This document shows, piece by piece, positions 1 to 20,650 of a stretch of DNA of 64,000 nucleotides. The stretch is from Desulfosoma sp. Lineage in GTDB: Bacteria; Desulfobacterota; Syntrophobacteria; Syntrophobacterales; DSM-9756. The notes below the pieces were generated by a model, which searched no databases, was not told where the DNA came from, and saw only the letters and a list, made by a program, of their open reading frames with translations. Numbering within the stretch: the first letter of the stretch is position 1; the number at the start of each line of letters is the position of its first letter. The DNA is taken from assembly GCA_037481835.1 (NCBI GenBank), contig JBBFKW010000002.1, positions 1 to 64,000 on the forward strand, given 5' to 3'. The position numbers and the translations under genes are program-made.

Positions 1-372
1 GGCATCTTGCGAAATGCACCCCCATGTTGTTCGCTCTTAAGTCAACAGCATTGGGTGCCCAACCCGGTGACCCTTGCGGCATCTCGCCTCCCTGACGTAA
101 GATCCGTTAGTTCCCGACCGCGTCAAAACTTTTTCTTTAAGGAATTCTCTGCGACATCCAAAGCTTGCTTTTAGGATGTGGATCTTTCTCGGGCTCGCGA
201 AATCCTTTAGGCGATTCCATTCCGACAATGGTCGATAATTTCCTTAAAGGAATTGGATCAGCATGACGACTTATTCAATGGGAAAATGTGGCTGAGGAAA
301 GAGACTCTCGCCGAAAGAGGGCAAATTCCTAAAGCTAAGATGACCGCCACTCAACCCCAGAAGGAGCCGGAA

Positions 373-2627: not shown

Positions 2628-2646
2628 CTCGCAAGGTTCCAACACC

Positions 2647-3690: not shown

Positions 3691-3704
3691 GAGGCTTTTT
3701 GACA

Positions 3705-4271: not shown

Positions 4272-4289
4272 TCGTGCAAAACGTTTAAT

Positions 4290-7200
4290 CTATTGCTGCT
4301 GCTTCCAGCCGCTTTTTTCCACGGGAGAGGGCAGATCCACTTTCAAGCGGTGGATTTCCCCGTTGCTCGTCTGGATGAAAAGATACTCCCCGGATGAATC
4401 CATAACGGGGCGGCTGGGCATCCCCTCGCCCAGTTTCAACACGTAAGCTTGCACCTGCCCCCCATCTTTCACCTCGGTATACTCGCCGCTTTGCAGCTGA
4501 TCCGGTGTTTTATTCACCTTGGCGAACCCCGATTTTTGGAAGGGATCGAGAGTCATGGGCCGGCACAGGTAATCGACTGCATAGAGGTAAGCGTCACCGC
4601 CGGCAGCGCAGGGATCGTCCTTGGGGACAAACGTGGTGAAGAATACGACTCCGCCCGCAACCAAGGCCGAGTCGACGACCCGCTCTCCCGCGATGGATAG
4701 ATCCTTCACACAGCTCCAGCAGGATCCCGAGCAAGACCCTTCGCAGCAATCCGGGCTGCCGTCGGCTTTGACCCAGTCACACCCGTTGAGAAATGTGGAA
4801 GAGGCGCATCGGAAAGAGGCTGTTATGTTGAGGCCGTGATAACTAATTCCACCGCTGAAGGTGTTCGGCCGGGTGGCGTTGTCATGAATGGCGTAGAAGG
4901 ACATGGTGGCGGTGTCGGTCTTGTCGTTAGAACCGCCGACGGCATTGTCGAATTTTCCCGTTCCAAAGTACAGCCAAAGGTTCTTGTACGGATCAAGGGT
5001 GGCCACGGGCATCACGGTCATGGGTTGGCGGTTGGAACGATAGATATTTGTTCCCGTTGGGGCGGGTTTGGTTTTGCTGACGCTCAGGTGCATTCCCGGC
5101 GGCGAAGCATCGAAATTGAGCTTCAAGGTGTAGAAGTTTCCGTTGAGATCCCCGAAAGCCAGATAATCCACATATCCGTCGTTGGCCACGAACCCCTGCG
5201 CATCCCAGAGATCCAAGGCCACGGGATCCCCCAGAGCATAAGGAATGGTGTTCGTTCCCGATGTGACTCTCGGCCATTGGGCCTCCCAAGTTTTGACGAT
5301 CTTGGGCCAGAGGTACTGAAAAATGTTAATGCCTTTTTCGATGTCGATCGCCAAGAAATTGGGGCGCAGGACAGCCGTCGTGGCATTGTCGCTCAGCGAC
5401 GCCGGAAGTTCCACGGATGGTTTGAACGTCCGCGGCGATGCTCCGAGAAAAGCGAACCATCCGCTCAGAGCATCGAGGCCGCGGCACGAAGAGGACAAGG
5501 AGGGGCTTCCCGCATCCAGAGACTCCACCCGTGGCTTGGTTTCGAAACACACGCCGTTGGGCACGCTCAGGGCCCCCACGTAAGGGACGGTCCAGGAAAC
5601 GGGCATGGCAGCCAACTGATCATAGACGGCCTTGTCGAGGAACGGCATTTCCCCGGTGCTCGCATCCATGACGAAGTTCCGCAATACCGGGTATTCCCAA
5701 AGGACTTTCGGAGCGTCGGGGTCGGTGACGTCGACGGCGAAATACACATCGCCGCCTCCTCGCTCGCCACCGATCAAGACCGTCCGCCATTCGCGGGTTC
5801 CATTCCCGTCATGATCGATGAAAACATCCCAGGCGACGGGAGAGAGGTCCACCATGGTTCGATGGGCGCACCCCGATGGATGGCCGTAGTCGCACTTGGC
5901 TAAGCTTTTGAGCTCAGGGAGGAGATTGCTGGGCACATAGGCCCAGAGTTCTTTGCCGATTTGCGATCCCAAGGTCCCATTGTCCGGGTCGTAGACCCAC
6001 TTGGAGGTGTTGTTATCCCACACACCGACGACAAAGGCATGAAGCATGCCGTCGTTGGCCCCCACATAAACCATTTTTTTTCGTGTGCTTTGTTTTTGGC
6101 GGAAACAGTAAAAACATTTCTCCGCACATGCGTCGACTTCCGTTTGCATGCCTGTGCAGGTGCAGGAGCAATCCCCCGCAAGGTGAGGATTCACGGAACT
6201 GATGGACGGAGGCCCCACAACCACAGGGGTGGAATAGACGATGTCCCCCAGCGGCCACCCGTGGCGATCCCGAGCCTGATCTTTCCAAAATGTGTCCCAT
6301 TCGCCGCGGAGCCATCGGATCAAGTTCCCGGAATCGTCTGCAGCGCTTCCATCGCCGTCAAAGTCGATATCGTTCGCCAAGACCGCTTCAAGAGTGCCCG
6401 AATTGGAGGGGAGCCCTGAGTAGAATGAAGTGTTGCAGGAGGATGTCCCATCGTCCAGTTTGGTCATGGTTCCGTCGATCATCGTGAAAAGGCACCGTTT
6501 ATTGGGGTCTCCATCCTTCAAAACTTTTCCGGCATCCCAGCAGGAGCCATAGGTGAATCCGGGATCGGAGCAGAACTTTCCCTTGTTCTCGGTCCTCTGA
6601 AAGCTGTATAGGGTCCCCGTGCATTGTCCGAGATACCATTGGCACCCGGTATAACTCTGACATGTGGCATTATCGGTAATATCTGTACAGTTGTCGGGCC
6701 AGTAGGCTTCCAAGTGCCCTTTCCATGCATAAATGCTGGGGTTGTCCTCGTAGGCGGTGAAAGCGCCGCGAATAACGAGATCCTGGCCCAACACTTCCTG
6801 AGTGACAGTGGCGACAGCGCCGGCGCTGCCCGCCTTGGCCAGGATGGCAAGCATGGCTTTTTCCAATTTTTGTTCCAGTTCCAGGGGGTTGGCCACGAAG
6901 AAATAATTGTCCGGAACACCGTCTCCGTCCTTGTCCCACTCGTTTTGGAGATCCGGCTTGTTGTTTCCGTTCATGTCGTCGAAACCGCCCCACTTGGCGG
7001 CGTACCATAGTGGATTCTTGAGGGTCTGTGCGGGATCGCCCGAAACGGTGAATGTCTTGGACCATGTCTTCGGCAATCCCGCGACGACGCTCGATGTGTC
7101 AGCATCCGCGCTATCTGGCACATCCGTGTCTTTGACAGGCAGATAGAGACCGTCCTCATTTGTTCCGGAAATAACGAATCCCAGAACCTGATCGATGCAC

Positions 7201-9356
7201 CCGGCGGCGTATTGTGAATTCAGGGTGACCTTGACTTGATTGGATCCAACGGGTTCAATTTCGTAAGTGACCATGGAATCCATATCATGATCGGCACCCT
7301 GTTCCACGTCCTCGAAGTTGACCCGAAACTTGGCGTAGGTGAGGTGCGAGGCGTTGTCATAGGTGACGGTATCCACATAAAAGTCCACGATTTGATTTGA
7401 TGGGCAATAGGCGTCTGACGAGCACGAGGCGATCTTGAGCCCGTGGGTGTCAGTCGTCAGAGTGCACTTTGCCGCGCACGCCGTTTTCACGCCCAGGCAG
7501 CCGCTGGCGGATTTCCCCACAGGGACCAAGCGCACGAACTGGTCGCCCACTTTGACGTTGATGTCGGGAATGGGGGACGACATGGCCACGGCATAAGTGG
7601 TCACGTCTGGAATCCCAGCATCTTGAGTGATCCCGGTTTTTCCGTAATAAGCCACGGCTGCTGAGTAGAAACTTCCCTGCTTGGTGGGTTCTTCCGGGCA
7701 CAATCCGCGTATGGAACTCAGATTGGCGATGGTTTTGGACGAGCAGACGAAGTCGTAAAGATTGCCGCTTTGCCCGATAAAAAAGTCCTGATTTTGAAGA
7801 CCTTCCGATGTTCCTATCAGGTTGGCCAGCGTGCTCACATTCAATCCGGACAGATCCCCGGTAAAGGAACCAAAGGTACTCGAAACACCGGGAATCTGGT
7901 TGGAATCGTAACTTGGGTTGATGTCGCTGAGGACCAAGAGGTTGGGTTTTGAACAATCGGGAAAGAGATCAAAAGGGTGAAGCTCATCATTTCCTTTCTG
8001 GATGAACCAGTCGGGCTTGGATAAGTTCAGCCCGGCGTCATCATTGCCGCTGTATGTGAAGGCGCCCGTCGGAGCGCTCTTGCCGACAATGAAGCGCAGG
8101 GCCTCATACATCATTTCGCCGACAGGATTTCCCCACATGCGGCATTCGCCCTCGTTCAAGGCGTGGTCCGTGATCCACCCGCATGTACCCCCGGCGCTCG
8201 CTTGGTAAGAAAAATCGGAATAACGGAAACCGACGGGTTTCATCCGGTCCATTGTCAGGACAATATTGCCTTGAACGTTTTCCGAACTTTGAAAGCTTCC
8301 CGACTGGGTGTTGATTTCATCCATGACCGTCCAAATATTTTTTCGAAGAACCCCGCCGCTGAGGTTCTTTAGGTAAGATCCGGTGAGCAAGCCGATGTAA
8401 AGGGGACTGCGAAACACGCAGAGTCCCTCGCCCGTGCCGCAATCGGCGTCCGTCTGGCAACTTTTATAGGTCTTGGAGCACATCTTGCTGCCGTCCCCTT
8501 CGCCGTATTTTTGCAAGAGACCGACGGGCTTTGGAGTGGTTCCCCCTCCTGGATAGAGTTTACAATAGTTTCTTTCTAACCCCTGTTGGTAAGCCGTACT
8601 GCAAACCTGGACTCGGACGATATAATCCGATATATCAGCTCTTGTTCCTACCGGCCCATGGCGATAGGCAGCTGGAGTTTCCGGCCCGCTGCACACAGCC
8701 CGTTCCGTCGTGGCCCATTCCCAGATGCGGTGGCTATCATTAAGGGCGACGCGAATTTTGTGAGGCTCGCCAGCTCCTGTGCTTGTAACGCAGAAAAGGT
8801 GGCGTTTTCCTGAATCCGGAGGATTGAAGGGGGTGAGGTTTCTCGTATCGCTGGCGCTGTATTCCTTTCCCCAACTGTGCGCGTCCTGGGGGATGTACAC
8901 CCCCTCAAGGACCGTCTCACTAGAACTGTCTGTGGAGCGGTGCCCTCCGTAGAGGACGCGTCGCAATACATCCATGCGGGACATGGAGAGCCAGTTGAGG
9001 AAATTGCCGCTCCATTCGTCGGCTCCTCCACAGTACTTATTCGCCGTATAACGGGTAGGAACGAACTTGGCCTGACCGGAACTCTGATATTGGTAGCATT
9101 TGTACGGGTCGAAATAACCAAAATAATCTATGGAGTGCTTATAGCCCACATCCAGCTTACCGTCACCATCCAAGTCCTGAGCATCGTTATACGCTTCATA
9201 GTAAAGTTTATGGTCCCTTTCCATGACCATCATCACCATGGGGTTGGCGCCGGCCGAGACGAAAGGGGGGGGATCGCACGATGGGGAATAGGCCTGAGCT
9301 GGGGTGAGAAAGGTGAGAAAACAAAAAACCGCCTCAAAAAGCCCTGCTTTCCTCAT
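4290..9356 (-). CDS. pilY1: PilY1/PilC type IV pilus tip adhesin, Cys-rich, 1688 aa
   Basis: Signal peptide (AQA); LGDIVYSTP, VYVGANDGMLHAF, ELWAYVP, YFGTGK and VFFTTF beta-propeller motifs; GGAGG RBS. Confidence 0.93.
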   Translation of the reverse strand: MRKAGLFEAVFCFLTFLTPAQAYSPSCDPPPFVSAGANPMVMMVMERDHKLYYEAYNDAQDLDGDGKLDVGYKHSIDYFGYFDPYKCYQYQSSGQAKFVPTRYTANKYCGGADEWSGNFLNWLSMSRMDVLRRVLYGGHRSTDSSSETVLEGVYIPQDAHSWGKEYSASDTRNLTPFNPPDSGKRHLFCVTSTGAGEPHKIRVALNDSHRIWEWATTERAVCSGPETPAAYRHGPVGTRADISDYIVRVQVCSTAYQQGLERNYCKLYPGGGTTPKPVGLLQKYGEGDGSKMCSKTYKSCQTDADCGTGEGLCVFRSPLYIGLLTGSYLKNLSGGVLRKNIWTVMDEINTQSGSFQSSENVQGNIVLTMDRMKPVGFRYSDFSYQASAGGTCGWITDHALNEGECRMWGNPVGEMMYEALRFIVGKSAPTGAFTYSGNDDAGLNLSKPDWFIQKGNDELHPFDLFPDCSKPNLLVLSDINPSYDSNQIPGVSSTFGSFTGDLSGLNVSTLANLIGTSEGLQNQDFFIGQSGNLYDFVCSSKTIANLSSIRGLCPEEPTKQGSFYSAAVAYYGKTGITQDAGIPDVTTYAVAMSSPIPDINVKVGDQFVRLVPVGKSASGCLGVKTACAAKCTLTTDTHGLKIASCSSDAYCPSNQIVDFYVDTVTYDNASHLTYAKFRVNFEDVEQGADHDMDSMVTYEIEPVGSNQVKVTLNSQYAAGCIDQVLGFVISGTNEDGLYLPVKDTDVPDSADADTSSVVAGLPKTWSKTFTVSGDPAQTLKNPLWYAAKWGGFDDMNGNNKPDLQNEWDKDGDGVPDNYFFVANPLELEQKLEKAMLAILAKAGSAGAVATVTQEVLGQDLVIRGAFTAYEDNPSIYAWKGHLEAYWPDNCTDITDNATCQSYTGCQWYLGQCTGTLYSFQRTENKGKFCSDPGFTYGSCWDAGKVLKDGDPNKRCLFTMIDGTMTKLDDGTSSCNTSFYSGLPSNSGTLEAVLANDIDFDGDGSAADDSGNLIRWLRGEWDTFWKDQARDRHGWPLGDIVYSTPVVVGPPSISSVNPHLAGDCSCTCTGMQTEVDACAEKCFYCFRQKQSTRKKMVYVGANDGMLHAFVVGVWDNNTSKWVYDPDNGTLGSQIGKELWAYVPSNLLPELKSLAKCDYGHPSGCAHRTMVDLSPVAWDVFIDHDGNGTREWRTVLIGGERGGGDVYFAVDVTDPDAPKVLWEYPVLRNFVMDASTGEMPFLDKAVYDQLAAMPVSWTVPYVGALSVPNGVCFETKPRVESLDAGSPSLSSSCRGLDALSGWFAFLGASPRTFKPSVELPASLSDNATTAVLRPNFLAIDIEKGINIFQYLWPKIVKTWEAQWPRVTSGTNTIPYALGDPVALDLWDAQGFVANDGYVDYLAFGDLNGNFYTLKLNFDASPPGMHLSVSKTKPAPTGTNIYRSNRQPMTVMPVATLDPYKNLWLYFGTGKFDNAVGGSNDKTDTATMSFYAIHDNATRPNTFSGGISYHGLNITASFRCASSTFLNGCDWVKADGSPDCCEGSCSGSCWSCVKDLSIAGERVVDSALVAGGVVFFTTFVPKDDPCAAGGDAYLYAVDYLCRPMTLDPFQKSGFAKVNKTPDQLQSGEYTEVKDGGQVQAYVLKLGEGMPSRPVMDSSGEYLFIQTSNGEIHRLKVDLPSPVEKSGWKQQQ

Positions 9357-9512: not shown

Positions 9513-9613
9513 ATCTTTTTCGCTGTTGCGGGCAAAAAATTTTTTCATGTTTCACGCGTGACCATGTTATGAAATTAAATAACATCCACTACCATGGTGT
9601 ATCCGAGGGCGCA

Positions 9614-10114
9614 ATGCGGTCGGAAGATCGGCGGTATGTCGCCTCCTATCGAGCTTTCCGAAAATGCCAGGTCCTCATTCGCTATCGAGGGTGGGCGAGG
9701 GCCGATGAACACACAGGCCCTACGGCCTTTACGCTGGTGGAACTGATGGTCACGGTGGCCATTGTGGCGGTTTTGGCGGCGGTGGCCGTGCCGGCCTATG
9801 TCCATCATGTGAGGCGATCGGAGCAGTCCCAGGCGGTGGAGGCGCTCCTCACGGCGCGCATGGAGCTGGAGGCTTTCTGGGCCGACCACAACCGCTACGC
9901 GGGAACCTTGCGCCTGCTTCCTTCCTTTGAAAGCGCAACCCAGGGAAAATACGTCTTGACGTTGAAAACGAGCCCAGACGGGCAGCGTTACCGCATCGAA
10001 GCCATGCGGCCCGATGTGGGGGACCTCCTGCACCTTTGCGATAACGAAACGAAGCCCGTTGTGGATACGCCCAAGGCCTTGGGGTGGTCCCTGTTTCAAT
10101 GGGTTTTTGACTGA
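9614..10114 (+). CDS. pilE: Type IV minor pilin, PilE-like (cluster 2)
   Basis: A|FTLVELMVTVAIVAVLAAVAVPAY; clear paralog of the first pilE (FW.DHNRYAGT..LPSF). Start uncertain. Confidence 0.82.
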   Translation: MRSEDRRYVASYRAFRKCQVLIRYRGWARADEHTGPTAFTLVELMVTVAIVAVLAAVAVPAYVHHVRRSEQSQAVEALLTARMELEAFWADHNRYAGTLRLLPSFESATQGKYVLTLKTSPDGQRYRIEAMRPDVGDLLHLCDNETKPVVDTPKALGWSLFQWVFD

Positions 10115-10138
10115 GCGCGGCCATGGAAAGGAGGCGCC

Positions 10139-10771
10139 ATGGGACGGCTCCCGAAGGAGGCCCGTAGATGCATCCGGGGCATGACCCTGGTGGAACTCAT
10201 GGTGGTCCTCGGCCTCATCGCCCTTCTCATGAGCGTCTTTGCCATCCGCGTGCACAGCGCTTCCTACCGCTTGAAATCCGCCGTATCCCAGGTGCGGTCC
10301 CTCATCCAGCGCGCCCGCCTGGAAGCCGTCAAGAACAATAAAAACGTTTACCTGGACTTCGATGCGGACGACGATGGAGTTCTCCAAACCGTCGTCCTTT
10401 GGGTCCACATGGATTCGGGGGAGTCCAGTCCCACCTATGATGCGGAGGAGGACGCGGCGGTGGTGTCTGAAAGAATCTTCTTTCCTCCGGGATCGTCCAC
10501 GAACAGACCCACGCTGGGGGCCGTTCCGGCCTCGGCAGGGGGACCGAGCACGGGCGCTCCTCGGGAAGGCGGAACGATTCCCGAAGACGGGGTGAGCTTT
10601 TCCGGAAACCGCATCAATTTCAACCCGGACGGCACATCGTCCACGGGAACCGTGTACATGCACGTGCCGAATGATCCCAAGGCGGGAACCTACGCCATCG
10701 TCGTCAACAACACGGGGCGGGCGTATTTGCGGTATTTCCCCACGGGAGGTGCGGCGTGGGAGGACCGGTAG
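10139..10771 (+). CDS. fimT: FimT/FimU minor pilin, cluster 2
   Basis: RG|MTLVELMVVL; ARLEAVK and FNPDGTS.TGTVY motifs; AAGGAGG RBS. Confidence 0.85.
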   Translation: MGRLPKEARRCIRGMTLVELMVVLGLIALLMSVFAIRVHSASYRLKSAVSQVRSLIQRARLEAVKNNKNVYLDFDADDDGVLQTVVLWVHMDSGESSPTYDAEEDAAVVSERIFFPPGSSTNRPTLGAVPASAGGPSTGAPREGGTIPEDGVSFSGNRINFNPDGTSSTGTVYMHVPNDPKAGTYAIVVNNTGRAYLRYFPTGGAAWEDR

Positions 10772-10848
10772 GCGCACGGAGGAACTATGTTCCACGGCGC
10801 CCCTTCGTGCGGAACTTCGCGGCCGGGGGGACGGAAGATCGGGAGCGG

Positions 10849-12039
10849 GTGCGCCCGAACAGGGGGAAAAGGCGGGGAAGGAATTCTGGAGGCGGGCGAA
10901 CGGAGATTTTTGGAGAGCGGGATTTTTGGCGGCGGGGCATGAGCCTTGTGGAATTGCTCACGGCCGTAGCCGTCACGGCCGTGGTGATGCTTTCCGTCTA
11001 CGGGGCCTTTACGGCCCAGCAGCGCTTCTACGGGGAGGAACAGCTGATCCTGGAGCTGCAGCAAAACCTGCGCGCGGCTTTGGACGCCGCCGCGCAGACA
11101 CTCCAGCAGGCGGGTTACTGGCGATGCGTGGACCCTCACCGGGTCAGCCGAGAAGGGGCGGGCGTCAAAAACGCCCTGCGTGAGGCGGGAAATCTTTTCC
11201 ACACGCATCCTGTGATGGGGTTTAACAACGTCTCGGCTGATTCGGAACCTTTCTCCGACGGGCAGACCCGCCTTGGGACCGACGTCCTGGGATACAGTTT
11301 CATCGATCCGGCCTTCCACGGACCGCTCGCCCAGGACCAGGCCGTGCCGTCGGGTCCCCTCCGGCTCGTCAAGAATCCCTTCACGAGCGGCCTGAAGAAG
11401 GGCCAGATCGTTTTCGTCACCGCATGCCGTCGAAGCGCCCTGTTTCAAGTGACGGGCGTTTCAACAAGCGGCGGTGGGGTCACCCTGGAACACGAGGCTG
11501 GGGCGGGCTTCCCGGGAAACGCCACGCGCTGCCTCCAGTGCGACGACGGCACATCGGCCTGTCTGGATGAGGGCGCATGCGCCGGATCGGGTAACGGCTT
11601 TGCCAAGGATGTCTCCTTCGTCCACCCTGTCAAGGTGGGTTATTTTCGCGTGAACACCAAGGGAGAATTTCAATGGATCGAAGGCGGACCTGGGACCGGC
11701 GTGCAGTTTGTCTTTTCCGGCCCCCGGACCTTGGCCGAAAACGTGGAAGATTTCCAGGTGGAATTCGGGGTGGACATGAGCCCGATCCCGGATGGGTCCG
11801 CGGAGGCGTGGGTGCCGGCTGACGCTGTCCCCGATGCCATGCCGGAAGACGGCTTTCCCGATTGGGAACGGGTGACGGCCGTGCGCTGCCATCTTCTCGG
11901 GCGCGCCCGGAGGGCCTTCAAAAATTTCGTGAACACGAACACGTATCTTTTCGCGGATCGAGACGCGAAGCCCACCGGGGACGGGTATCGACGTCTCCAC
12001 GTGATGAAAACGGTGATCTTGCGCAATGCCATGCCGTAA
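10849..12039 (+). CDS. pilW: PilW-like minor pilin, cluster 2
   Basis: RRG|MSLVELL; LQQNLR..L...LQQAGY, LAENVEDFQVEFGVD and C-terminal LRN. Start uncertain (ORF open from 10756). Confidence 0.85.
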   Translation: MRPNRGKRRGRNSGGGRTEIFGERDFWRRGMSLVELLTAVAVTAVVMLSVYGAFTAQQRFYGEEQLILELQQNLRAALDAAAQTLQQAGYWRCVDPHRVSREGAGVKNALREAGNLFHTHPVMGFNNVSADSEPFSDGQTRLGTDVLGYSFIDPAFHGPLAQDQAVPSGPLRLVKNPFTSGLKKGQIVFVTACRRSALFQVTGVSTSGGGVTLEHEAGAGFPGNATRCLQCDDGTSACLDEGACAGSGNGFAKDVSFVHPVKVGYFRVNTKGEFQWIEGGPGTGVQFVFSGPRTLAENVEDFQVEFGVDMSPIPDGSAEAWVPADAVPDAMPEDGFPDWERVTAVRCHLLGRARRAFKNFVNTNTYLFADRDAKPTGDGYRRLHVMKTVILRNAMP

Positions 12040-12055
12040 GAAATGGGATCTCAAC

Positions 12056-12568
12056 ATGATGCCGGGCGTCACCCCCTCGACGGGGACCATTTTTGTCCCG
12101 TGTCCGTGGACCGGAAGGTGGGGTGGTTGGAGAGAGCCACCCGGTTTCACCCTTGTGGAAGTTCTTGTGGCCGTCGTCGTAGCCGTGGTGGTCTTTTTAG
12201 CGTTTTTCGGCGTGCATGCCATAGGAATCCGAACCCGAGCCCACGCCCGGCTGGCGTCCGCGGCGCTCAATGTTGCGGCGGATTTCGTGGATCAAGTGGC
12301 GGTGTCCGCCGGAGACACCGTTGTCATCAACGGCGAAGGAGTGGCCGATTCCGGTTTTCTTGAAAACGGCGTCCCCACGGGGTCGGGGGCGGTTTTTTCA
12401 AGGCGCTGGGACATTCAAAGGGGGGTTCCTGCGCCGCATCTTGTGACGGTGCGGGTGATCCTGTGCTGGAGCGAACCCGGAAAACCTCTGCCTACGGCGG
12501 TTCATTGCGATTTCCCGGATCCCGCGGCGCCCCATGTGGCGCTGGAGGCGGTGTTGTATCGGCCGTGA
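12056..12568 (+). CDS. pilV: PilV-like minor pilin, cluster 2
   Basis: G|FTLVEVLVAV; FSRRW.I and VTVRV..CW motifs. Confidence 0.78.
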   Translation: MMPGVTPSTGTIFVPCPWTGRWGGWREPPGFTLVEVLVAVVVAVVVFLAFFGVHAIGIRTRAHARLASAALNVAADFVDQVAVSAGDTVVINGEGVADSGFLENGVPTGSGAVFSRRWDIQRGVPAPHLVTVRVILCWSEPGKPLPTAVHCDFPDPAAPHVALEAVLYRP

Positions 12569-12694
12569 AGGGGAGGGTGTTGGGGTTCGCTGAGCTCACA
12601 CCAACCTCCATTGGGACGGGAGATTTTCACGAGATTTATCGGCGGCATGAGTGGATGGGAGGGGCGGTGAAGAGAAGGAAGAGGAGCGGGAGGC

Positions 12695-13378
12695 ATGGAT
12701 GCGGGGCGATGGGGTGGAAGGAGGGGTGAGCCAGCTGGGAAGTGCCCGGGGGTTTTGGTGCGCAATCGCGAAGGCATGGCCTTGCCCTTGGTGCTGGTGA
12801 TCGTGGCGGCTCTGGCGGTTTTGACCGTGGGCTTGGCCCTGGACCATGCCGTGGAGATGCGTATCGCGGGGAACCGCAAGGCTGCGGAGACGGCTTTTCG
12901 AAACGCCGAGGCAGGCCTTGCGCTGGCGCAACAGCGGCTGGCTCAAAGATTCGCTTCAGACCCCGTGAACCTGCAGCGCCGGCGCTCAGGCAGCGCAGCG
13001 CTTCCGGACTGGGATTTCCTGTTCCTGGGGGTGGTGCCGTACGCGGGCCGAAACAGCCGAAGCGACCTTTACGATGAGGTCAAGGTGGATTTGGGCATGG
13101 ATCATCGGTTCAAGGTCTTTGCCAGGCTCCCCGAAGACCGCAAAGACGGCGCCTTTAACGACCTGTACGGGGACAACACCCGAGTGGTGCTGCGCAGCGT
13201 GGGTTTCGGCCCGGCCGGGGCGGAGCAGGAAACGGAACTGATGGTGGAAGCCGCTGCCGAACCGTCCGCGTCCGTCTGTTACGCCCAGGAAGGGGGAGGG
13301 TCCATGCCCGGCTACGTAAACATGCATGATCGGGATGCCGTCTCCGCGATGGGATCGCCTCTCGCCACGGTTCCCTGA
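12695..13378 (+). CDS. pilX: PilX-like minor pilin, cluster 2
   Basis: NREG|MALPLVL lacking Glu5; IAGN...AFRNAEAGL PilX N-terminal motif. Confidence 0.85.
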   Translation: MDAGRWGGRRGEPAGKCPGVLVRNREGMALPLVLVIVAALAVLTVGLALDHAVEMRIAGNRKAAETAFRNAEAGLALAQQRLAQRFASDPVNLQRRRSGSAALPDWDFLFLGVVPYAGRNSRSDLYDEVKVDLGMDHRFKVFARLPEDRKDGAFNDLYGDNTRVVLRSVGFGPAGAEQETELMVEAAAEPSASVCYAQEGGGSMPGYVNMHDRDAVSAMGSPLATVP

Positions 13379-13589
13379 GGCCCGGAACGAGCCGGAAGGG
13401 GGCCGCGAGAGGTCGGGACCGAACGCGAAGGAAGACGAACGAGCGCAAGGGAGCCGATGGATACAAGAAAGATGAGCGATGTGAAGGTCCGCCGGGGTCT
13501 TCGTTGTAGGAGTGGCGCGCCGCGAGGGTGAAGCACAGGGCGAAGTCTTCGCCACGGGGCGGGCCAGGTGGATGGAAGGGGTGGAAAAG

Positions 13590-16500
13590 ATGGTCGGCAC
13601 AAATCCCGCAATGCGCCGCGTCGCCCGGGTTGTCCTCCCGGGCATCCTCATAGGGGTCGTCTCTGCGGCTTTCGGGGCCGTGTGCGAACCCCAGAGAACC
13701 GTCCGGTATGACGGGGCGTGGCAGAAGAGCCATTTCAGCGTCTTGGACCCCCCCGTGGTCATTGACCCCGACACGGGCCGTCTTGTCCTGCGCCCCGGCG
13801 TCCCCGCGCCCGATTGGGAAAGGATCGTTACGGCAAAAGACCAGGACGTGCGCGTGACGTTCGTCTTCCAAGGGTCCGAAGGCTCCCGGAACCACCTGGG
13901 TTATTTCTTGAAATCCGCTGCGCACCGCAAAGGCTACATCGGACAGGACGGGAGCCTCGATCGCACGGCCTTCGTTCGAGGAATCAATTTCACAGATCCG
14001 GCCGGCTACGATGCGGAAACGTTTCACTACATTTTCACGTGCCTTCGGGATGAAAACCAAAACGGCATTCTCGAAAAACCCTCCGGCCCGGGATGCGCGG
14101 CATCATTTCCCGAAGCGGCATCTGCCGTCCTGGACTATGCCGATACGGAAGAAGCCCTGGCGAGGGTGGAGGACGGCACGGGGCTGGCTTTCGTCCCGGA
14201 CGGCGACGGGCGGATCACCGTTCGGGATATGACCAAGAGTCTCGGCATCATTGCGGAAGGGGAAGAGATCGTTTTCTTCATGGTGCCTGACGGCCGCTTC
14301 CAGGATGCCTTTGTGACCAAGGCCTCATGGAACGGGGACGTGTATGCGGGGATCGATCCATGCGGGGCCGAGTTTTCCGACGGCATGCCGCCGAAAACAT
14401 ACCGCCTGAACACTTCCGCCCCGGATGACGGTACCTGCGCCGTGGATTCCGGCTGGCTTCCGGCGCGGGCTCTGGAGCGCCTGCGGGAAGGGTTGGGCAT
14501 CGTTTTTGATCCCGAGGATGCCGCTCACGTGTCCGTGCACACGGGAAAGAAATTTTCCCACGTGATTATCGGGGCTTCTCGCCGCTTTCCCACCCGATGG
14601 GTCATGGGGTGGGAAGACGGTGAAGGGGGAACCGATACGGATCACAACGACCTCGTGGTTGCCGTATCCCTTAAGGCGGCGGGGCGCGCCGTATCCCAGG
14701 ATTTGACCGGAGCCCAGCTTGCCGAGACGGGGGCGTTCATCACGGCCGTGGATGTGGAAGTGACGGATCGCCGAGCCCCTTGTGAGGCCGCCGAGGCCGG
14801 GTTCGTTTTGGAAAGCGGCGGTTTGACGGGTGCGGCCGTATCCTACTTCATCAGCGTGGATAACGGGACCTCGTGGCTTCCCGTCCGTTCCTGGAACGAG
14901 GTGATCCAGGGCGAGGACGGGTTTCAAACCCGAAAGGCCCACGTGGACGTTTTGAGCACCGGCCGCACAGGCCGTGCCCTTAAGTGGAAAGCCGTCCTGG
15001 AAACCGTGGACGGGCGCTGCGATCCGCCGGAGATTGCCGGCGTGAAAGTCGCCTATACGGCCGCGGCAAGCGGAGAATTTTCGCGCGCCGATCCCGTGGT
15101 GCTCGGAAACGTCTTGTATTCCGGTTCATTGGAAACCCCGTCCGCGTCATGGGCGGAGCCGTCTCGACTCCGCGGGCATCTTCGGGCTTACAAGATCTAC
15201 GACCCGGCCGATCCCGCACGACCCCTTTTCGACCTTCTTTGGGACGCGGGCCCAAAACTTGCCGAACGGTCTTTTAAGACCGAGCCTAGAGCGGTCCTGA
15301 GCCCGATCGGTGAAGCTCGGACCTTCCGGGAAACCGTCGGAACCGGAGACGGCGTCACGCGCCGTTTTCAGGGAAACCTTTTCCAAGGGTCGGTTCTTCC
15401 CGCATCGGTAATCTTTCGGAGCATATCCGAGGCTGGGGCCTCCCTGATCGTCACCGAATCCGGTGAAGGGGATTTCCAAGGCGACGGCGCCGGAACCATC
15501 CACCGGGGGACCGGGTACTATGCGCTCGAGTTTGTGCAGGCTCCGTGCGATGGCTGTCCCGTCAAAGTGGAAGGCGTTACTTTCACGCAAGGCAGCGAAC
15601 TGCGGCCTTTTTCCGAAGAAACCCTATCAGCCCTCATGCTGGGCCTGAGCGACGCCTATGTCCACGGGACGGGTTACGCATGGGACCTGAACGGCGACGG
15701 GCGATACGACGATACGGACCGAGGGCACCTGATCCGGTGGGTGTTGGGCTTTGACGGTCCCGCTCAAAGGCCGTGGCCCTTGGACGGGATCGATCACGGC
15801 ACACCGGCCGTGGTGGGACCGCCGGGGCTTCCCCCGTGGTATTTCGGCACGGGGACGACCCCGGAGGAACGGGACGCCTATGATCTTTGGAGGCAGTCGG
15901 AATCCGTGGCGAAGCGACCCACGGTGGCCTATACGGGAAGTTTGGGAGGCATGATCCACGCCTTCCGTGCCGGCCGCTACCGCCACGGGGACGATCCCCG
16001 GACGCCCGTAAGAGAAAACAGGGGATACTTCGACGGGCACGATTACGGCGACGGCGCCGAACTGTGGGCCTTTCTTCCTTCAAATCACATTTCCAGGCTA
16101 AAGCTTTTCCTGAGGCCCGACCCCCGGGCCGCCCCTCCGAGCATGGATGCCTCGCCGGCGGTCCACGACATCGCCGTGGCGACCGACAAGGGCCCTGTGT
16201 TTAAAACGGTCCTTTTGTCGGCTCAAGGGGCTGGAGGGGACACCATCGTCGCCCTGGATGTGACGGATCCCGAAAAGCCGTCATTTCTTTGGGAATACGC
16301 CGACCCCGACCTTTATCGAAGCCGGGCGGCTTGCGCCGTGGCGAAAATCGGCCGGTTGAACGACCGCGGTTCTCCCGCATGGGCGGCTTTCTTCCCTTCA
16401 GGGCGAACGCACGACCAATCTCACCCGTTTCTTTTTGTCTTCGATGCCGCTCGCGGCTCCCTGATTGGAAAGAAAGCCTTCGACGTCGTGGACACCAATC

Positions 16501-17321
16501 GAGGCGCCCTTTTGAGCGGCAGTGCCGCCGTTGTGGACAGTGACGGAAACGGCTTTGCAGACCGGGCCTATCTGGCGGACAACAAGGGCCATGTGTACCG
16601 CGTGGACTTTCCGGATCGGGCGGAATGGGCCTGGGATCCGGCAAAGATCGCCGTGAGTCTCCTCGTCAAGGTATCCTCACCGGTTTATGCCACCCCGGTG
16701 GTCTATCTCGCCCACCGGTACAAGCCGGATGGAACCATCGACGAAGAGCACGTCAAGGTCATGTTCGGCACTGGGGACGATCCCTACCACGCCGACAGTC
16801 CCAACGCCCCGACGGGCTACAAGTTCTATGTTTTTGACGATACCTGCCGGAGGGATGGATCCGGCGGGGTTCTGCGCCGAAACGACGGCACGCCGTGTGC
16901 GCCGGAAAAGATGTTCACGGAGGCGGAGGCCCAGTGGATCTGGACGCTTCTGGGGGGCCACCGCATCTGGGCCGAAGCCGTCGCCGCCGCCGGGAGGGTC
17001 TATTTCGGCACGGCGGTGACGGATACCACCGATCCCTGCGCGCCCTTGCAAGACGAAGGAAAAAAGGGAGGCACGGTCTACAGCGTAGATCTCGCCGCGT
17101 TGGAGCCGGAGTTGGAACCGACGGTCGTCATGGAAGCGGAAGGAAACGTGACAGGACTTTTTGTGGAGGACGAACACCTGTACGCCAAGGTGACGTCGCG
17201 GGAAGGCGGCACCCGAGTGCGCGTGGTGGGCGACGGCCTTTTCAACAACGAAACGGTGCTCGGAACGACCTACGTCACAAGGAAGGTCAAAGGGTCCTGG
17301 CGGCGCATTTTGGAAAAGTGA
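13590..17321 (+). CDS. pilY1: PilY1-type tip adhesin with N-terminal DUF4114-like domain (cluster 2)
   Basis: Signal peptide; WEDGEGGTDTDHNDLVV (DUF4114-like); GMIHAF, ELWAFLP, LDVTDP..P..LWE, DSDGNGFADRAY and FGTG propeller motifs; ends in SWR. Start uncertain. Confidence 0.88.
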   Translation: MVGTNPAMRRVARVVLPGILIGVVSAAFGAVCEPQRTVRYDGAWQKSHFSVLDPPVVIDPDTGRLVLRPGVPAPDWERIVTAKDQDVRVTFVFQGSEGSRNHLGYFLKSAAHRKGYIGQDGSLDRTAFVRGINFTDPAGYDAETFHYIFTCLRDENQNGILEKPSGPGCAASFPEAASAVLDYADTEEALARVEDGTGLAFVPDGDGRITVRDMTKSLGIIAEGEEIVFFMVPDGRFQDAFVTKASWNGDVYAGIDPCGAEFSDGMPPKTYRLNTSAPDDGTCAVDSGWLPARALERLREGLGIVFDPEDAAHVSVHTGKKFSHVIIGASRRFPTRWVMGWEDGEGGTDTDHNDLVVAVSLKAAGRAVSQDLTGAQLAETGAFITAVDVEVTDRRAPCEAAEAGFVLESGGLTGAAVSYFISVDNGTSWLPVRSWNEVIQGEDGFQTRKAHVDVLSTGRTGRALKWKAVLETVDGRCDPPEIAGVKVAYTAAASGEFSRADPVVLGNVLYSGSLETPSASWAEPSRLRGHLRAYKIYDPADPARPLFDLLWDAGPKLAERSFKTEPRAVLSPIGEARTFRETVGTGDGVTRRFQGNLFQGSVLPASVIFRSISEAGASLIVTESGEGDFQGDGAGTIHRGTGYYALEFVQAPCDGCPVKVEGVTFTQGSELRPFSEETLSALMLGLSDAYVHGTGYAWDLNGDGRYDDTDRGHLIRWVLGFDGPAQRPWPLDGIDHGTPAVVGPPGLPPWYFGTGTTPEERDAYDLWRQSESVAKRPTVAYTGSLGGMIHAFRAGRYRHGDDPRTPVRENRGYFDGHDYGDGAELWAFLPSNHISRLKLFLRPDPRAAPPSMDASPAVHDIAVATDKGPVFKTVLLSAQGAGGDTIVALDVTDPEKPSFLWEYADPDLYRSRAACAVAKIGRLNDRGSPAWAAFFPSGRTHDQSHPFLFVFDAARGSLIGKKAFDVVDTNRGALLSGSAAVVDSDGNGFADRAYLADNKGHVYRVDFPDRAEWAWDPAKIAVSLLVKVSSPVYATPVVYLAHRYKPDGTIDEEHVKVMFGTGDDPYHADSPNAPTGYKFYVFDDTCRRDGSGGVLRRNDGTPCAPEKMFTEAEAQWIWTLLGGHRIWAEAVAAAGRVYFGTAVTDTTDPCAPLQDEGKKGGTVYSVDLAALEPELEPTVVMEAEGNVTGLFVEDEHLYAKVTSREGGTRVRVVGDGLFNNETVLGTTYVTRKVKGSWRRILEK

Positions 17322-17362: not shown

Positions 17363-19606
17363 CTAGCGTCGGGCCGGAAGGACTTCCCAGAGCTGATACA
17401 CGAAAGGTTTTTGAGCGACGCGGCGGAATCGGCCTCCGGCAGGCGTTTCGTTCAAGAAAAACAATCGGTGAAAAACCGAATCCCCGATGGCCGCTCCATC
17501 CATGAGCACGCCCAATGAGACGGCCTGGTGCAGATCGAGGTGAGGCCCCATGCCGTCTCGGTAACGCCACATGGTCCGGGTGCCGTCTGGGCCGACCAAG
17601 CCCAGGGAAGAGAGGGGGACGAGGCGATCGCCCAGGTGAAGTTCCCCGCGCTGGAGATGAACGCCAGCGGCACCCGGCACCCGCCGTGTCGAATCGTCCC
17701 AAAGAACCACGGGATAGATGGGCCGATAGGTCGGATGAATGCCGTCTCGGATTTCCGGGTCCCAGGTGCCGAACCAATACCACCAGTAGGCCGTGTTGAG
17801 GAGCAGTTGATCCAAGAAAAGATAAACCGGACGCGGAGGATCGGGATAGAAAAAGGTGCTCCAGGTATTTTTTCCGGGAATTCGGGTGAGCCCCAAACGG
17901 CGGGCATTTTCTTCACACCCATCGGGACCGGCGGAAAGCATGACTCTTAGGGCCTTCAGGGTTTGGGTTGCGGAAAGCCCGTTGGCGCGCGAAAATTCCC
18001 GGATGCCGGATAAGCCCCGGGCGCTGAAAAAGATCATGAAATTCGCTGCAAAACTTTCGTCCGTTGCGGCCAAAGGCATGGCCAAGGACACCACCAGCTC
18101 TCCGCCGTGGATTTCCCCGTCGGCGATGGTGCCGCGCCGAGCCCAGTATTGCAGATGATACCCATGGTCCCACCAAGCCCAAAGCACGGCGTTTTCCGGG
18201 GTGCGCCGCGCCGCTTCCGTCATGCCGGAGACGACCGGGGCGTTTTCCGACGGCCACCTCACGGCTTTGGCCGTGCTGAAAAAGGCGGGAAGAAGAAAAA
18301 TCGTTCCCACCGTTAAGGCCGCCGCCGTGGAAAACACCCGCCGGGCCGAGATCCCTGTCGATGGCGGCACCGTGGGCGAGGGCGCGGGCGGATCGCCCTT
18401 TTGGCGCGCAGGCCGGGAGTGGGCGGTTTCGCGACGGAAGCGTTCCCAAAAAGCGGGCGAGGGGGTTTCCAGGCGCCGCTGGAGGCGGTCCGCGATCCAT
18501 CCCAAGCCCAGGCCTGCAAGAGGGGCGGCGTAGACGGCGAGACGTTGGGCGAAAAAAGATCCCACGAAACCGAGAACGATCAAGGGCGCGAAGAAAAAAA
18601 ACGTGCTCGGCTGCGTGATGAAAAGCCATCCGAGACCCAAAACCGCAACGGTGAGCACCCCCGCATGGCCCGCCACGGTGCGTGCGAATTCCTCGAAACT
18701 CGGCCGAACCTGCTCACTGATGGACAAACCGATGTTGGGAAAATCCCCCGGGGCTTGTTTGATAAGCATGTATGCGAGTTGGCCCCTGGCTCGGTGCCAG
18801 GCGTCCACGAAAGGAGTGGGACCCTTGAAAGCGAAGAGCACGGCGGCGGCGCAAAAAACAAGAGCCAAAACGACCCAGAGGGATTTCTTGTCGCCCCTCC
18901 GGCGCCGTTTCACCAAGGCCGCCGCCAAAGGGACGGCCGCCAGAAGAAACGGCGTTTGAGGGCTCTGATCCCACCACCAGGCATGCAGCCCCACGGCCGC
19001 CAAGGCGCTCCCGAGCCATAAACCGGCGCGCCGGGACGCGTTGGAAAAGCCCATCAGGCATCCCACGACCAGGACGGGAAGGCCCACGTTCAGGCTGTCC
19101 GTATCCAAACGCCCGAGATTGGTGCGGTGCACAAAAAATGGGGAAAGCCCCAAGGCCGCACAGGCGATGAGCGCTCCCACGGGGCCCATGAGGGTCCGGG
19201 CGGGCACGTAGAGGCACAGGGCCGAAAGGGCACCGAGTACGGCCGGCAGGGCCATGGCGATCCAGGGGATGGAAACGCCGCTGAGCTTGTGCAGACCCGC
19301 GGTGAGGAGACTCAGGAGCGGTATGGGCCGAGGTCGCGCCGGACTGTCAGGAACCCCGCGAAAAGAGTCTTGCGCCTCGTAGGTTCCTTCCACCACGTCG
19401 CGAGCCAACCGCATGTAGTACGGCGCGTCGAACGTGGTGGGCAAGGGTTCCCCCTGGACAAAGCACCGGTCCCGATGCTGTTTCCAGGCCGGATACGGCG
19501 CAAGGCGCACCCATAGCCCCGAGGCGATCACGGCGGCGAGCCCCAAAGCGACCCACAGTCGAGAGGATCGGTAAAGGGCGGCCACGTGGGAAGGAATGGG
19601 GTTCAT
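17363..19606 (-). CDS. pglB: STT3/PglB/AglB-family N-oligosaccharyltransferase
   Basis: Polytopic membrane N-half with TTFDAPYY, R....RLDTD and SISE (TIXE-like) motifs; periplasmic WWDHG (WWDYG-like) and DGEIH motifs. Confidence 0.9.
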   Translation of the reverse strand: MNPIPSHVAALYRSSRLWVALGLAAVIASGLWVRLAPYPAWKQHRDRCFVQGEPLPTTFDAPYYMRLARDVVEGTYEAQDSFRGVPDSPARPRPIPLLSLLTAGLHKLSGVSIPWIAMALPAVLGALSALCLYVPARTLMGPVGALIACAALGLSPFFVHRTNLGRLDTDSLNVGLPVLVVGCLMGFSNASRRAGLWLGSALAAVGLHAWWWDQSPQTPFLLAAVPLAAALVKRRRRGDKKSLWVVLALVFCAAAVLFAFKGPTPFVDAWHRARGQLAYMLIKQAPGDFPNIGLSISEQVRPSFEEFARTVAGHAGVLTVAVLGLGWLFITQPSTFFFFAPLIVLGFVGSFFAQRLAVYAAPLAGLGLGWIADRLQRRLETPSPAFWERFRRETAHSRPARQKGDPPAPSPTVPPSTGISARRVFSTAAALTVGTIFLLPAFFSTAKAVRWPSENAPVVSGMTEAARRTPENAVLWAWWDHGYHLQYWARRGTIADGEIHGGELVVSLAMPLAATDESFAANFMIFFSARGLSGIREFSRANGLSATQTLKALRVMLSAGPDGCEENARRLGLTRIPGKNTWSTFFYPDPPRPVYLFLDQLLLNTAYWWYWFGTWDPEIRDGIHPTYRPIYPVVLWDDSTRRVPGAAGVHLQRGELHLGDRLVPLSSLGLVGPDGTRTMWRYRDGMGPHLDLHQAVSLGVLMDGAAIGDSVFHRLFFLNETPAGGRFRRVAQKPFVYQLWEVLPARR

Positions 19607-19612
19607 GGAACC

Positions 19613-20383
19613 TTACGGCGCGTTCAATTTGTTTTCCAGGGCCGATCGGTCCATGACCCCCGATCGGAACGTGCCGTCGGAGAAGATGTAGGTGGGCGTT
19701 CCCCCGATGCCGTGCGCCTGCATGAACTTCATGACGGCGTCGATCTTTTCGGTCCCTTCCTTGCACTGGTTGTCCGACTTGTAATTGGTTTTGAATTCGT
19801 CATGCCCTTTCTTGTCGCACAACAGAGCGATGCAGGATTCTCGAGCTCCGGGATGCATGGGCAGAGGATAGAGCACATAGCGAACGTTCAGAACGCCTTC
19901 CGAGGCCATGGCTTCCAGAGTGCCTTCCGCCTGTTTGCAGTAAGGGCATTGAGGGTCCGTCACGAAATAAATGGTCTTGGGGGCCTTCTCCGGCCCCAGG
20001 GTGAACGCCGTGAGGCCTTTCAGGGTTTCCAGATCTTTCGAGGTCAGTCGGTTCAATTCTTCCAGAGCCGCTTGGGTGAGGTTCTTCTTGTCTTGCGCGT
20101 CAAGAATTTGTCCCAGGACAAGGTATCGACCCGAAGGGTCGATGTAAAGGATTTGGTTTCTCTCGCTGACCAGAACATGGACTTGGCACAAACCCGGCAC
20201 GGGAGACGGAGCCACCTTTTTGACGGTCACCTCGCGCCCGGCGAAGGTCGCCGAAACCTTTTCCTGAACAGCGCCCGCTTCGGGGCAGGAGGCTTCTTTG
20301 GGAGCCGCGGCCCACAGGGAACCGGACACAAAAAGCAGAAGAAAACTCCAGACCCATATCGCCATCACTCTCTTCCTTCGCAT
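19613..20383 (-). CDS. dsbC: DsbC-family disulfide isomerase
   Basis: Signal peptide, N-terminal dimerisation domain (SPVPGL...LYID..GRY), TDPQCPYC and GTP motifs. Confidence 0.9.
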   Translation of the reverse strand: MRRKRVMAIWVWSFLLLFVSGSLWAAAPKEASCPEAGAVQEKVSATFAGREVTVKKVAPSPVPGLCQVHVLVSERNQILYIDPSGRYLVLGQILDAQDKKNLTQAALEELNRLTSKDLETLKGLTAFTLGPEKAPKTIYFVTDPQCPYCKQAEGTLEAMASEGVLNVRYVLYPLPMHPGARESCIALLCDKKGHDEFKTNYKSDNQCKEGTEKIDAVMKFMQAHGIGGTPTYIFSDGTFRSGVMDRSALENKLNAP

Positions 20384-20650
20384 GCTTTTCTCCTCGCTCG
20401 TTTTCGTGAGTCGTTTCTCGGAAAAGGCCGCTGTCGCCCGCAGGAACCGGTCCTGTGGGCATCCAGTGTAGCGCAATCCTCGTCTTGAGGCAATTTTCAA
20501 CCCTTGGGAGGGAAGAGGGGACGTTTTTCGGACGAGGACGATCAGTTCACGGTTTTGTCATGCAAGAAACCTAATTGTGACAATTTTTTCATTGTAAGAG
20601 CTTGTTTATCATGGCATAAGCACGAACATCGGCGGTATGGGTTTTTTCCT

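Follow-up and report, generated by a model that had tools for sequence, protein, structure and literature searches.

Within the first 64,000 nucleotides of contig JBBFKW010000002.1 of a Desulfosoma sp. genome (assembly GCA_037481835.1; this whole stretch is called the window below), the open reading frame (ORF) at 17363..19606 on the minus strand is a real, intact gene for a PglB-like single-subunit oligosaccharyltransferase (OST). Overall, we lean, with modest confidence, toward an explanation in which this enzyme is predicted to glycosylate the tip proteins of a type IV pilus, with Asp-Asn-x-Thr/Ser as its favoured sequon. The OST gene would be co-transcribed with a gene for a DsbC/G-like disulfide isomerase, the pair converging on type IV pilus tip genes, and in the periplasm the enzyme would transfer a lipid-linked glycan to Asn residues of Cys-rich PilY1 adhesins and minor pilins; some other exported proteins may be substrates as well. 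The preferred sequon would thus carry its acid at position -1, and not at -2, where Campylobacter has Asp or Glu.

Aspartate-preceded sequons in the pilus proteins

The OST gene and the genes around it that matter most here are these:

253..4271, plus strand: minor-pilin operon 1, encoding ComP-like pilin, Ig-domain, FimT/GspH, PilV-like, PilW and PilX-like proteins (Pfam)
4290..9356, minus strand: large Cys-rich PilY1, 1688 amino acids, 50 Cys (Pfam T4P_PilY1, 1.7e-15)
9569..13378, plus strand: minor-pilin operon 2, encoding a ComP-like pilin, a FimT/GspH-like protein, PilW and two N_methyl/PilX_N-like proteins (Pfam)
13512..17321, plus strand: PilY1-like protein of cluster 2, 1269 amino acids, convergent with the OST gene (Pfam T4P_PilY1, 1.3e-08)
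17363..19606, minus strand: single-subunit STT3/PglB-type N-oligosaccharyltransferase (Pfam, profile, AlphaFold2 and Foldseek)
19613..20500, minus strand: DsbC/DsbG-like periplasmic disulfide isomerase with a CPYC site (Pfam DsbC_N, 1.8e-17, and Thioredoxin_2)

The 13 pilus ORFs of the window hold 38 N-x-S/T sites, and in 18 of them the Asn is preceded by Asp. Cluster 1 (253-9356), in which minor-pilin operon 1 converges on the large PilY1, carries 16 D-N-x-S/T motifs against 1.40 expected, a number reached by none of 5000 within-protein shuffles; 9 of the 11 sequons in the operon and 7 of the 18 in the PilY1 are of this kind. The motif ends in Thr in 14 cases and in Ser in 2, its reverse occurs once, and Asp or Glu stands at -2 in 3 of the 29 cluster 1 sequons. 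Non-Pro DN dipeptides continue as x-S/T in 16 of 22 cases in cluster 1, versus 114 of 836 genome-wide. In cluster 2, the PilY1-like protein, whose gene comes last in a minor-pilin operon spanning 9569-17321 and which is syntenic in three genomes of the same genus (G001-G003), has 5 sequons, one of them D-N-x-T, and the ComP-like pilin of operon 2 has a DNET site that is kept in all three.

Across the 3177 ORFs of the genome there are 114 D-N-x-S/T motifs, and six of the eight ORFs with at least two of them are extracytoplasmic (PilY1, PilW, a TadG-like Flp-pilus protein, a BACON-domain protein, a di-haem peroxidase-like protein and a GH123_N-like protein), the other two being Rho and DnaK. Outside the pilus region, Asp precedes the sequon in 19 of 258 sites in exported-like proteins versus 65 of 1675 in cytoplasmic-like proteins (odds ratio 1.97, p 0.02), and Asp or Glu at -2 shows no enrichment there (20 of 258 exported-like versus 144 of 1675 cytoplasmic-like). 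The TadG-like protein (428 amino acids, C6:113294-114577, locus L116) has 7 sequons, 3 of them D-N-x-S/T; judging from these motifs, a second kind of pilus may share the modification.

The enrichment of the motif is tied to the presence of an OST among related genomes. We counted sequons with Asp at -1 in cluster-1-type pilus proteins, and compared large-type PilY1 orthologues from genomes with and without the OST:

OST-bearing, same genus, Asp(-1)/sequons: G000 (the genome of the window) 16/29, G001 20/32, G002 17/33, G003 13/32
OST linked, other genera: G016, Asp(-1) 7/36, Asp/Glu(-2) 7
OST linked, other genera: G007, Asp(-1) 4/23, Asp/Glu(-2) 9/23
OST-less, Asp(-1)/sequons: G005 0/11, G008 0/13, G006 2/11, G014 0/15, G032 0/10, G010 0/10, G027 0/15

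Together, 66 of the 126 sequons in the four OST-bearing genomes of the genus have Asp at -1, and 2 of the 85 in the seven OST-less relatives; sequon density is 9.5-12.1 per 1000 amino acids in OST-linked clusters versus 3.6-8.1 in OST-less ones. No OST was found in any of these seven genomes by protein query or by profile A1 (an alignment and profile of 31 OST relatives, from which P0026 was left out at 38% coverage), and Pfam STT3 gave no match in G005, G006, G008, G032 and G027; profile A1 did hit G007, G016 and G011.

The PilY1 proteins of three OST-less relatives are 64-74% identical to that of the window, and a seven-way alignment allows the sites to be compared column by column. The four OST-bearing PilY1s have 24 distinct D-N-x-S/T columns, of which 4 are common to all and 14 are singletons; of the 64 cells of the OST-less proteins at these columns, 3 hold Asn and 29 have Ser or Thr at +2. 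The OST-less counterparts of the four genus-wide sites read DAxG; SQxV or DQxA; EAxE or DNxS; and N/DSxV, and the counterpart of a fifth site, present in three of the four OST-bearing proteins, reads SAxK. The column comparison thus argues that the motif turns over fast, and that at several sites the full motif, with its Asp, was put together in the lineage that carries the OST. Taken together, the clusters with and without an OST point to a putative Asp(-1) sequon, and we infer that the OST makes these modifications and itself reads the Asp.

Fold, catalytic residues and the EL5 arginine

The ORF translates into 747 amino acids, matches the Pfam STT3 N-terminal domain (PF02516, E 1.1e-13, 52 bits against a cut-off of 24.5) and the STT3-PglB_core domain (PF21436, E 4.7e-08, 34.1 bits against a cut-off of 23), and scores 51.6 bits, below the 1300-bit cut-off, with the NCBIfam equivalog for Campylobacter PglB (NF050801). 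Identity to the PglB proteins of Campylobacter lari and C. jejuni is about 16%; phmmer matched the C. lari PglB entries 3rce, 5ogl and 6gxc at about 3e-08, and profile A1 against the PDB matched 5ogl_A (C. lari PglB) over its full length (E 1.4e-50), the alignment ending no more than 10 residues from the C terminus. An AlphaFold2 model built on A1 (mean predicted local distance difference test score, pLDDT, 88.7; predicted template modelling score, pTM, 0.87) has the multi-pass membrane domain and periplasmic domain of the PglB fold, and its best three Foldseek matches are 6gxc, 5ogl and 3rce at TM 0.67-0.75 (6gxc_A: E 6.8e-27, TM 0.70/0.74), with archaeal AglB and eukaryotic STT3 ranking after the PglB structures. 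All four genomes of the genus carry the ORF intact, and the nearest named relatives, as annotated, are from Desulfacinum infernum (85%) and Desulfosoma caldarium (65%). The sole long low-confidence stretch of the model (block pLDDT 56-59) is a Pro/Arg-rich insertion of about 35 residues, at about residues 383-420 (window 18347-18460, minus strand) after a helix that ends near residue 380; among the A1 relatives it occurs in P0001-P0004 alone.

All of the motifs read from the DNA by an earlier note on this stretch (TTFD, R....RLDTD, SISE, WWDHG and DGEIH) are present in the translation. Residues are paired with those of C. lari PglB on the HMMER alignment of profile A1 to 5ogl, and EL5 denotes external loop 5:

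19427..19438, minus strand: first DXD-type motif, TTFD (T57-D60), with D60 equivalent to C. lari D56 (aligned to ittnD56gy)
19097..19126, minus strand: R161-TNLG-R166-L-D168-T-D170, with R161 equivalent to R147 and D168/D170 to D154/D156 (alignment)
18668..18724, minus strand: C-terminal half of EL5, SISE (S295-E298) followed by QVRPSFEEFARTVAG (translation)
18542..18544, minus strand: R355, equivalent to R375 (profile alignment; invariant in A1)
18161..18175, minus strand: WWDHG (478-482), a variant of WWDYG, followed by Y483, equivalent to Y468
18107..18121, minus strand: DGEIH (496-500) in place of DGGKH, with Lys replaced by Ile499

Both acidic DXD-type motifs of EL1 and EL2 (D60; D168/D170) are thus present, as are the TIXE/SVSE-type motif with the catalytic Glu of EL5, here SISE and of the S-[IV]-x-E kind, and the WWDYG motif with His481 at its fourth place; the catalytic E298 aligns to C. 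lari E319. Among the 31 relatives in A1, D60, D168, E298, R355, W479 and D480 are invariant, and R161, D170, W478 and Y483 nearly so. Three elements differ from the Campylobacter enzyme: the equivalent of D481-G-G-K, a motif of bacterial and euryarchaeal enzymes, is D496-G-E-I499, the Y196 position is W212, which is invariant in the family, and M569xxI572 (the MI motif; a DK or an MI motif forms the Ser/Thr pocket) is L602xxT605. In A1, L602, T605, D496, G497 and H500 are nearly invariant, and W211/W212 are invariant or nearly so. The roles assigned to these motifs follow the relevant passages of PMC8342417 and PMC6215017, the latter for the contact of C. lari R375 with the pyrophosphate of the lipid-linked glycan, which Y196 contacts as well. 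As judged from the aligned sequences, the catalytic set is complete, the DGGK Lys, Tyr196 and MI positions are family-wide variants, and the predicted enzyme is almost certainly a working N-OST.

In the specificity region, the Arg of the window enzyme is displaced by one residue relative to C. lari PglB. The sequence after E298 reads Q-V-R301-P-S-F-E305-E306-F-A-R309-T310-V-A-G-H, so that its basic and acidic residues are R301 (+3), E305/E306 and R309 (+11; codon 18680-18682), with T310 at +12. Single-sequence and profile HMMER alignments are both ungapped from E298 to T310, and in both R309 is aligned to C. lari Q330 and T310 to R331; counted on the alignments to 3rce and 5ogl, E319 and R331 are 12 residues apart, as the earlier note states. 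Its placement of Arg at +11 and Thr at +12 is borne out by the translation, by these alignments and by anchors shared across the family, and the R331 equivalent is not conserved, T310 taking its place. The register reads E8-F-A-R11-T-V-A-G15-H16 in the window, E8-L-L-R11-E-A-F-G15-H16 in G007 and E8-L-I-V-K12-S-A-G15-H16 in a relative with the basic residue at +12 (L078). Since the Glu(+8) and Gly-His(+15/+16) anchors stand in the same register in all three, the Arg has moved by substitution, and not through an indel or an alignment artefact.

Arg at +11 is found in 13 of 13 close relatives in A1 (63-85% identity) and in 2 of 18 more distant rows (P0016 and P0032), one row having Lys at +12. 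In a broader set of 79 family OSTs taken from fetched loci and scored on an alignment-based table, the basic residue is at +12 in 46 (41 Lys, 5 Arg), at +11 in 9 and at neither position in 24, while 41 have Arg or Lys at +3 and 48 have Glu at +8. Residues 304-312 of the model form a short helix before the next membrane helix (block pLDDT 91), on which R309 and T310 are neighbours about 100 degrees apart and E305/E306 lie one turn before R309. Candidate readers of Asp(-1) are R309, R301, which qualifies just as well, or a pocket reshaped by E305/E306. As a predictor of a -1 or -2 acid in linked pilus clusters, the EL5 basic residue (at +11, at +12 or absent) gave an inconsistent pattern and was set aside.

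In the sections of Ollis et al. [quoted passage not shown] The corresponding sections of Sotomayor et al. (2025; PMC12229607) give SVIE or SIIE in place of TIXE in Desulfovibrio OSTs, and describe an Arg in D. marinus PglB that is flanked by Glu and Asp, so that the patch is neutralised. By the D. marinus logic, the SISE motif, E305/E306 beside R309, and R301 suggest that the window enzyme should need no acid at -2. The earlier proposal that the -2 requirement is lost or shifted stands in part: the putative substrates have Asp at -1 and no enrichment of Asp or Glu at -2, but the displaced Arg is unsupported as the cause.

Conservation of the gene neighbourhood and the glycan loci

An OST match was found in 17 of 41 related genomes, the genome of the window included. 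In G001-G003, whose OSTs are 64-74% identical, the gene order is kinase, dsbC, OST, convergent PilY1, minor pilins and second PilY1. The linkage recurs at far lower identity: in G007, of another genus (OST 31% identical), the OST is flanked by a ComP-like pilin on one side and by a TPR protein plus pilin on the other, with PilW, a PilY1-like protein and a DsbC-like gene nearby; in G016, of another family (34%), it converges on a 1835-residue PilY1, beyond which come PilW, three N_methyl pilins, an Ig-domain protein and a ComP-like pilin. A G016-like arrangement is found in G029, of another genus, with frame changes in all genes; at this locus (L122, G029:C41:22000-37999) the OST, PilY1 and PilW are each split over several frames, explained either by indel errors in the assembly or by decay of the module as a whole. 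In a FastTree tree the genus sits on its own long branch, and the pairing of G007 with G016 joins long branches and is unreliable.

The linkage to pilus genes is not family-wide. Pilus genes were found by tblastn at 4 of 80 public loci (L002, L052, L017 and L008), and a strict pilin motif within 6 kb of 1 of 72 family OSTs; glycosyltransferases stand beside the OST at 6 of 12 Pfam-annotated distant loci (L026 and L031 of the 14 chosen having been left out). A second recurring arrangement places the OST beside a TPR protein of about 800 amino acids and a small N_methyl pilin-like gene (L097 of G007, L052 and L099 of G021, and L017).

The gene for the DsbC/G-like protein ends 6 nucleotides upstream of the OST on the same strand; its product has a weak NCBIfam DsbG match and CPYC at residue 185, and its true start is probably M40, at 20383. 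A dsbC homologue adjoins PilY1 in the OST-less G005, G008 and G006, which argues that the isomerase belongs with the pilus cluster rather than with the OST; in such relatives it stands beside a 50-Cys PilY1 (L105:6077-6919; L107:8348-9370). This arrangement suggests a dedicated disulfide isomerase of the pilus tip adhesin. Minor-pilin operon 1 includes the gene for an Ig-domain (He_PIG) protein (879-1679, plus strand); the protein has a lipoprotein-like N terminus, and its position is conserved in G001, G002, G003 and G016. Chemotaxis and flagellar genes make up the remainder of the window.

The window ORFs scanned against Pfam (50 + 11 + 3) yielded no glycosyltransferase, phosphoglycosyltransferase or flippase family, in agreement with the earlier note, which saw no glycan-synthesis or flippase genes and placed the OST with putative substrates rather than in a pgl locus; its neighbours are indeed minor pilins and PilY1. 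The further search it proposed, for other pglB copies and pgl genes, found this OST to be the sole STT3 match in the 3.63-Mb genome, and candidate glycan loci on contigs C1 and C11. The C1 locus (L102, C1:86000-101999) holds a bacillosamine-like set: a DegT aminotransferase, a PglD_N-hexapeptide acetyltransferase, a 207-residue PglC-like transferase (Bac_transf), GT1 and an AsnB-like protein. Beside it stands a Wzy_C gene, of a family that includes O-antigen ligases and PglL-type O-oligosaccharyltransferases, and this genome may also have an O-linked system. The C11 locus holds GT2, a WecA-like GT4, a DUF2304-GT2 pair and GT1. Neither could be retained as the donor pathway of the OST: the PglC-like transferase of C1 is without a close orthologue in G001-G003, and DUF2304 is present in 2 of the 4 OST-bearing genomes of the genus.

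In other lineages a GT2-DUF2304 pair flanks the OST, and the best homologue of this pair in the window genome is on C11. The OST is directly beside DUF2304 in the sister-family genomes G009, G015 and G019, and L025 has the order OST-GT2-DUF2304. The GT2-DUF2304 module is likely a partner that makes a polyprenyl-phosphate sugar, and one that was lost from the OST neighbourhood in the genus of the window.

Alternative explanations and relation to known systems

Several observations weigh against N-glycosylation of the pilus tip at Asp-Asn-x-Thr/Ser. Cluster 2, which lies beside the OST, is weakly enriched (2 motifs against 0.47 expected; 402 of 5000 shuffles reach 2), and the strongly enriched cluster 1 lies 8-19 kb away. 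PilY1 is sequon-rich even without an OST, at the 3.6-8.1 per 1000 residues given above, and the OST-less orthologues already have Asp at -1 in 26 of the 64 cells, so that part of the Asp bias reflects a pre-existing loop context. Two genomes with a distant, unlinked OST have next to none of these sequons (G011 0/18, G013 1/16), neither the C1 nor the C11 glycan locus co-occurs with the OST within the genus, and the enzyme has lost the DGGK Lys and aligns Trp212 to the Tyr196 position. The genome-wide counts use a gene set of greedy longest ORFs, split into exported and cytoplasmic by a crude hydropathy rule, and kinship limits the statistics: the genus counts as one event, G016 and G007 as two more, and the OST-less genomes represent perhaps four lineages.

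The pre-existing Asp also lends weight to another view, in which a relaxed, Desulfovibrio-like OST glycosylates the pilus proteins at N-x-S/T and the Asp(-1) is not read by the enzyme but marks the Asp-rich surface turns of PilY1 and the pilins, in which sequons are able to form and are accessible. Desulfobacterota PglBs are described as relaxed in the parts of PMC4894442 and PMC12229607 that treat their specificity, and the non-Asp sequons EGNVT and FNNET are conserved in all four cluster 2 PilY1 orthologues. Nonetheless, the sites with counterparts SQxV, EAxE and SAxK needed a new Asp besides Asn and Thr to become DNxT, the continuation of DN as x-S/T is far commoner in cluster 1 than genome-wide, and a mild Asp(-1) excess extends to other exported-like proteins; we consider this view unlikely. 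It is distinctly unlikely that the shift of the EL5 Arg from +12 to +11 alone re-aims a salt bridge from a -2 to a -1 acid and thereby gives rise to the D-N-x-T preference. The shift is real, with no indel between the anchors; R309 is kept in every close relative and sits in a confidently modelled helix beside the R331-equivalent position, and the strongest Asp(-1) bias is found in the genus with Arg at +11. At the same time, the OST of G016 has no Lys or Arg at +11 or +12 and yet its cluster has the 7/36 tabulated above, that of G007 has Arg at +11 and yet a -2 acid is commoner than Asp(-1), and the unlinked OST of G011 has Lys at +11 with no Asp(-1) sequon; moreover, the R331 equivalent does not decide the -2 rule, according to the same part of PMC4894442, and E305/E306 may neutralise R309 much as in the D. 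marinus enzyme (PMC12229607, as cited above).

The adjacency might also be incidental, with D-N-x-T serving metal binding, turn structure or another enzyme and the substrates of the OST lying elsewhere. The scarcity of pilin motifs near family OSTs, the glycosyltransferases beside half of the annotated distant loci, and the Wzy_C gene accompanying PglC/D/E-like genes elsewhere in this genome would all fit; but the motif contains the universal OST sequon with its usual Thr-over-Ser bias, it is nearly absent from pilus clusters of OST-less genomes, and the pairing of OST and PilY1 is seen in four genera at 31-34% OST identity, making coincidence improbable. Least credible is an inactive OST, or one with changed chemistry: in its favour, DGGK has become DGEI, the Y196 position is taken by W212 and that of MxxI by L602..T605, but these variants are family-wide, the ORF is intact throughout the genus, and Desulfovibrio PglBs with DGGR and NL variants are active in the part of PMC12229607 concerned with them, so that we give it almost no weight. 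Thus, N-glycosylation of the pilus tip at an Asp(-1) sequon is the explanation we prefer. Its most specific form, a natural 'minus-one rule' OST that favours Asp-Asn-x-Thr, reads Asp through a remodelled EL5 helix (R309, R301, E305/E306) and is dedicated to coating the pilus tip complex, is a tentative proposal, and one that we hold with less than even confidence.

To our knowledge, almost all that is understood of N-glycosylation in bacteria comes from Campylobacter PglB and a handful of Desulfovibrio enzymes, and no N-glycosylated tip adhesin of a bacterial type IV pilus has been reported. Our literature search, on N-glycosylation with type IV pili, PilY1 or minor pilins and on PglB with pilin or Desulfobacterota, returned archaeal N-linked and bacterial O-linked pilin work and no bacterial N-linked pilus system, and nothing on the clade of this OST appears in the portion of PMC11164674 consulted. 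What is new here is the Asp(-1) signature, its tie to the presence or absence of the OST among close relatives, and the focus on tip proteins. The determinants of OST acceptor specificity are an open question in the field, and sister genomes with and without the OST, whose putative substrates are 64-74% identical and point to Asp-Asn-x-Thr, provide a natural contrast that names residues to mutate. If the proposal is true, this would be the first N-glycosylated bacterial pilus tip; the modification would be relevant to adhesion, to the evasion of phages or to stability in thermophilic sulfate reducers, and a new, short and orthogonal sequon would make the OST a useful tool for glycoprotein engineering.

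In the context of known systems, the closest structural counterpart is the PglB of C. lari and C. jejuni (GT66; 3RCE, 5OGL, 6GXC), likewise a single-subunit bacterial N-OST with the same fold, the same catalytic Asp/Asp/Glu/Arg set and WWD, and a C-terminal periplasmic domain that aligns to the end. The window enzyme differs from it in SISE for TIME, WWDHG for WWDYG, DGEI for DGGK and LxxT for MxxI, in its Arg at E+11 rather than E+12, in its location outside a pgl glycan-assembly locus, and in a putative sequon with Asp(-1) rather than Asp/Glu(-2). The Desulfovibrio PglBs (D. gigas, D. marinus, D. vulgaris and D. alaskensis) belong to the same phylum and share the eukaryote-like S-[IV]-x-E in EL5; in the sections of PMC4894442 and PMC12229607 cited above they resemble the window enzyme further in having acidic residues next to the Arg of EL5 and in the evidence that speaks against a -2 rule, and they accepted an RDNAT site, with Asp at -1. 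They form a different clade, with SVIE/SIIE, WWDWG, DGGR and NL, of which only S-I-x-E is similar in the window (PMC12229607); as those sections present them, D. gigas and D. marinus have Arg at the R331 position, the known natural substrate is a periplasmic cytochrome, and no pilus linkage or Asp(-1) rule is described. The bacterial pilin O-OSTs (PglL and PilO/TfpO; Wzy_C) are alike in transferring a lipid-linked glycan en bloc to type IV pilus proteins in the periplasm, often from a gene beside that of the substrate, but they belong to an unrelated fold and family, and modify Ser/Thr of major pilins through an O-linkage. Archaeal AglB, in turn, is an STT3-family OST that N-glycosylates type IV filament subunits (pilins and archaellins) at N-x-S/T; it uses dolichol-phosphate donors and acts on major subunits, whereas the window enzyme is bacterial, and the proteins enriched in its putative sequon are those of the tip, PilY1 and the minor pilins.

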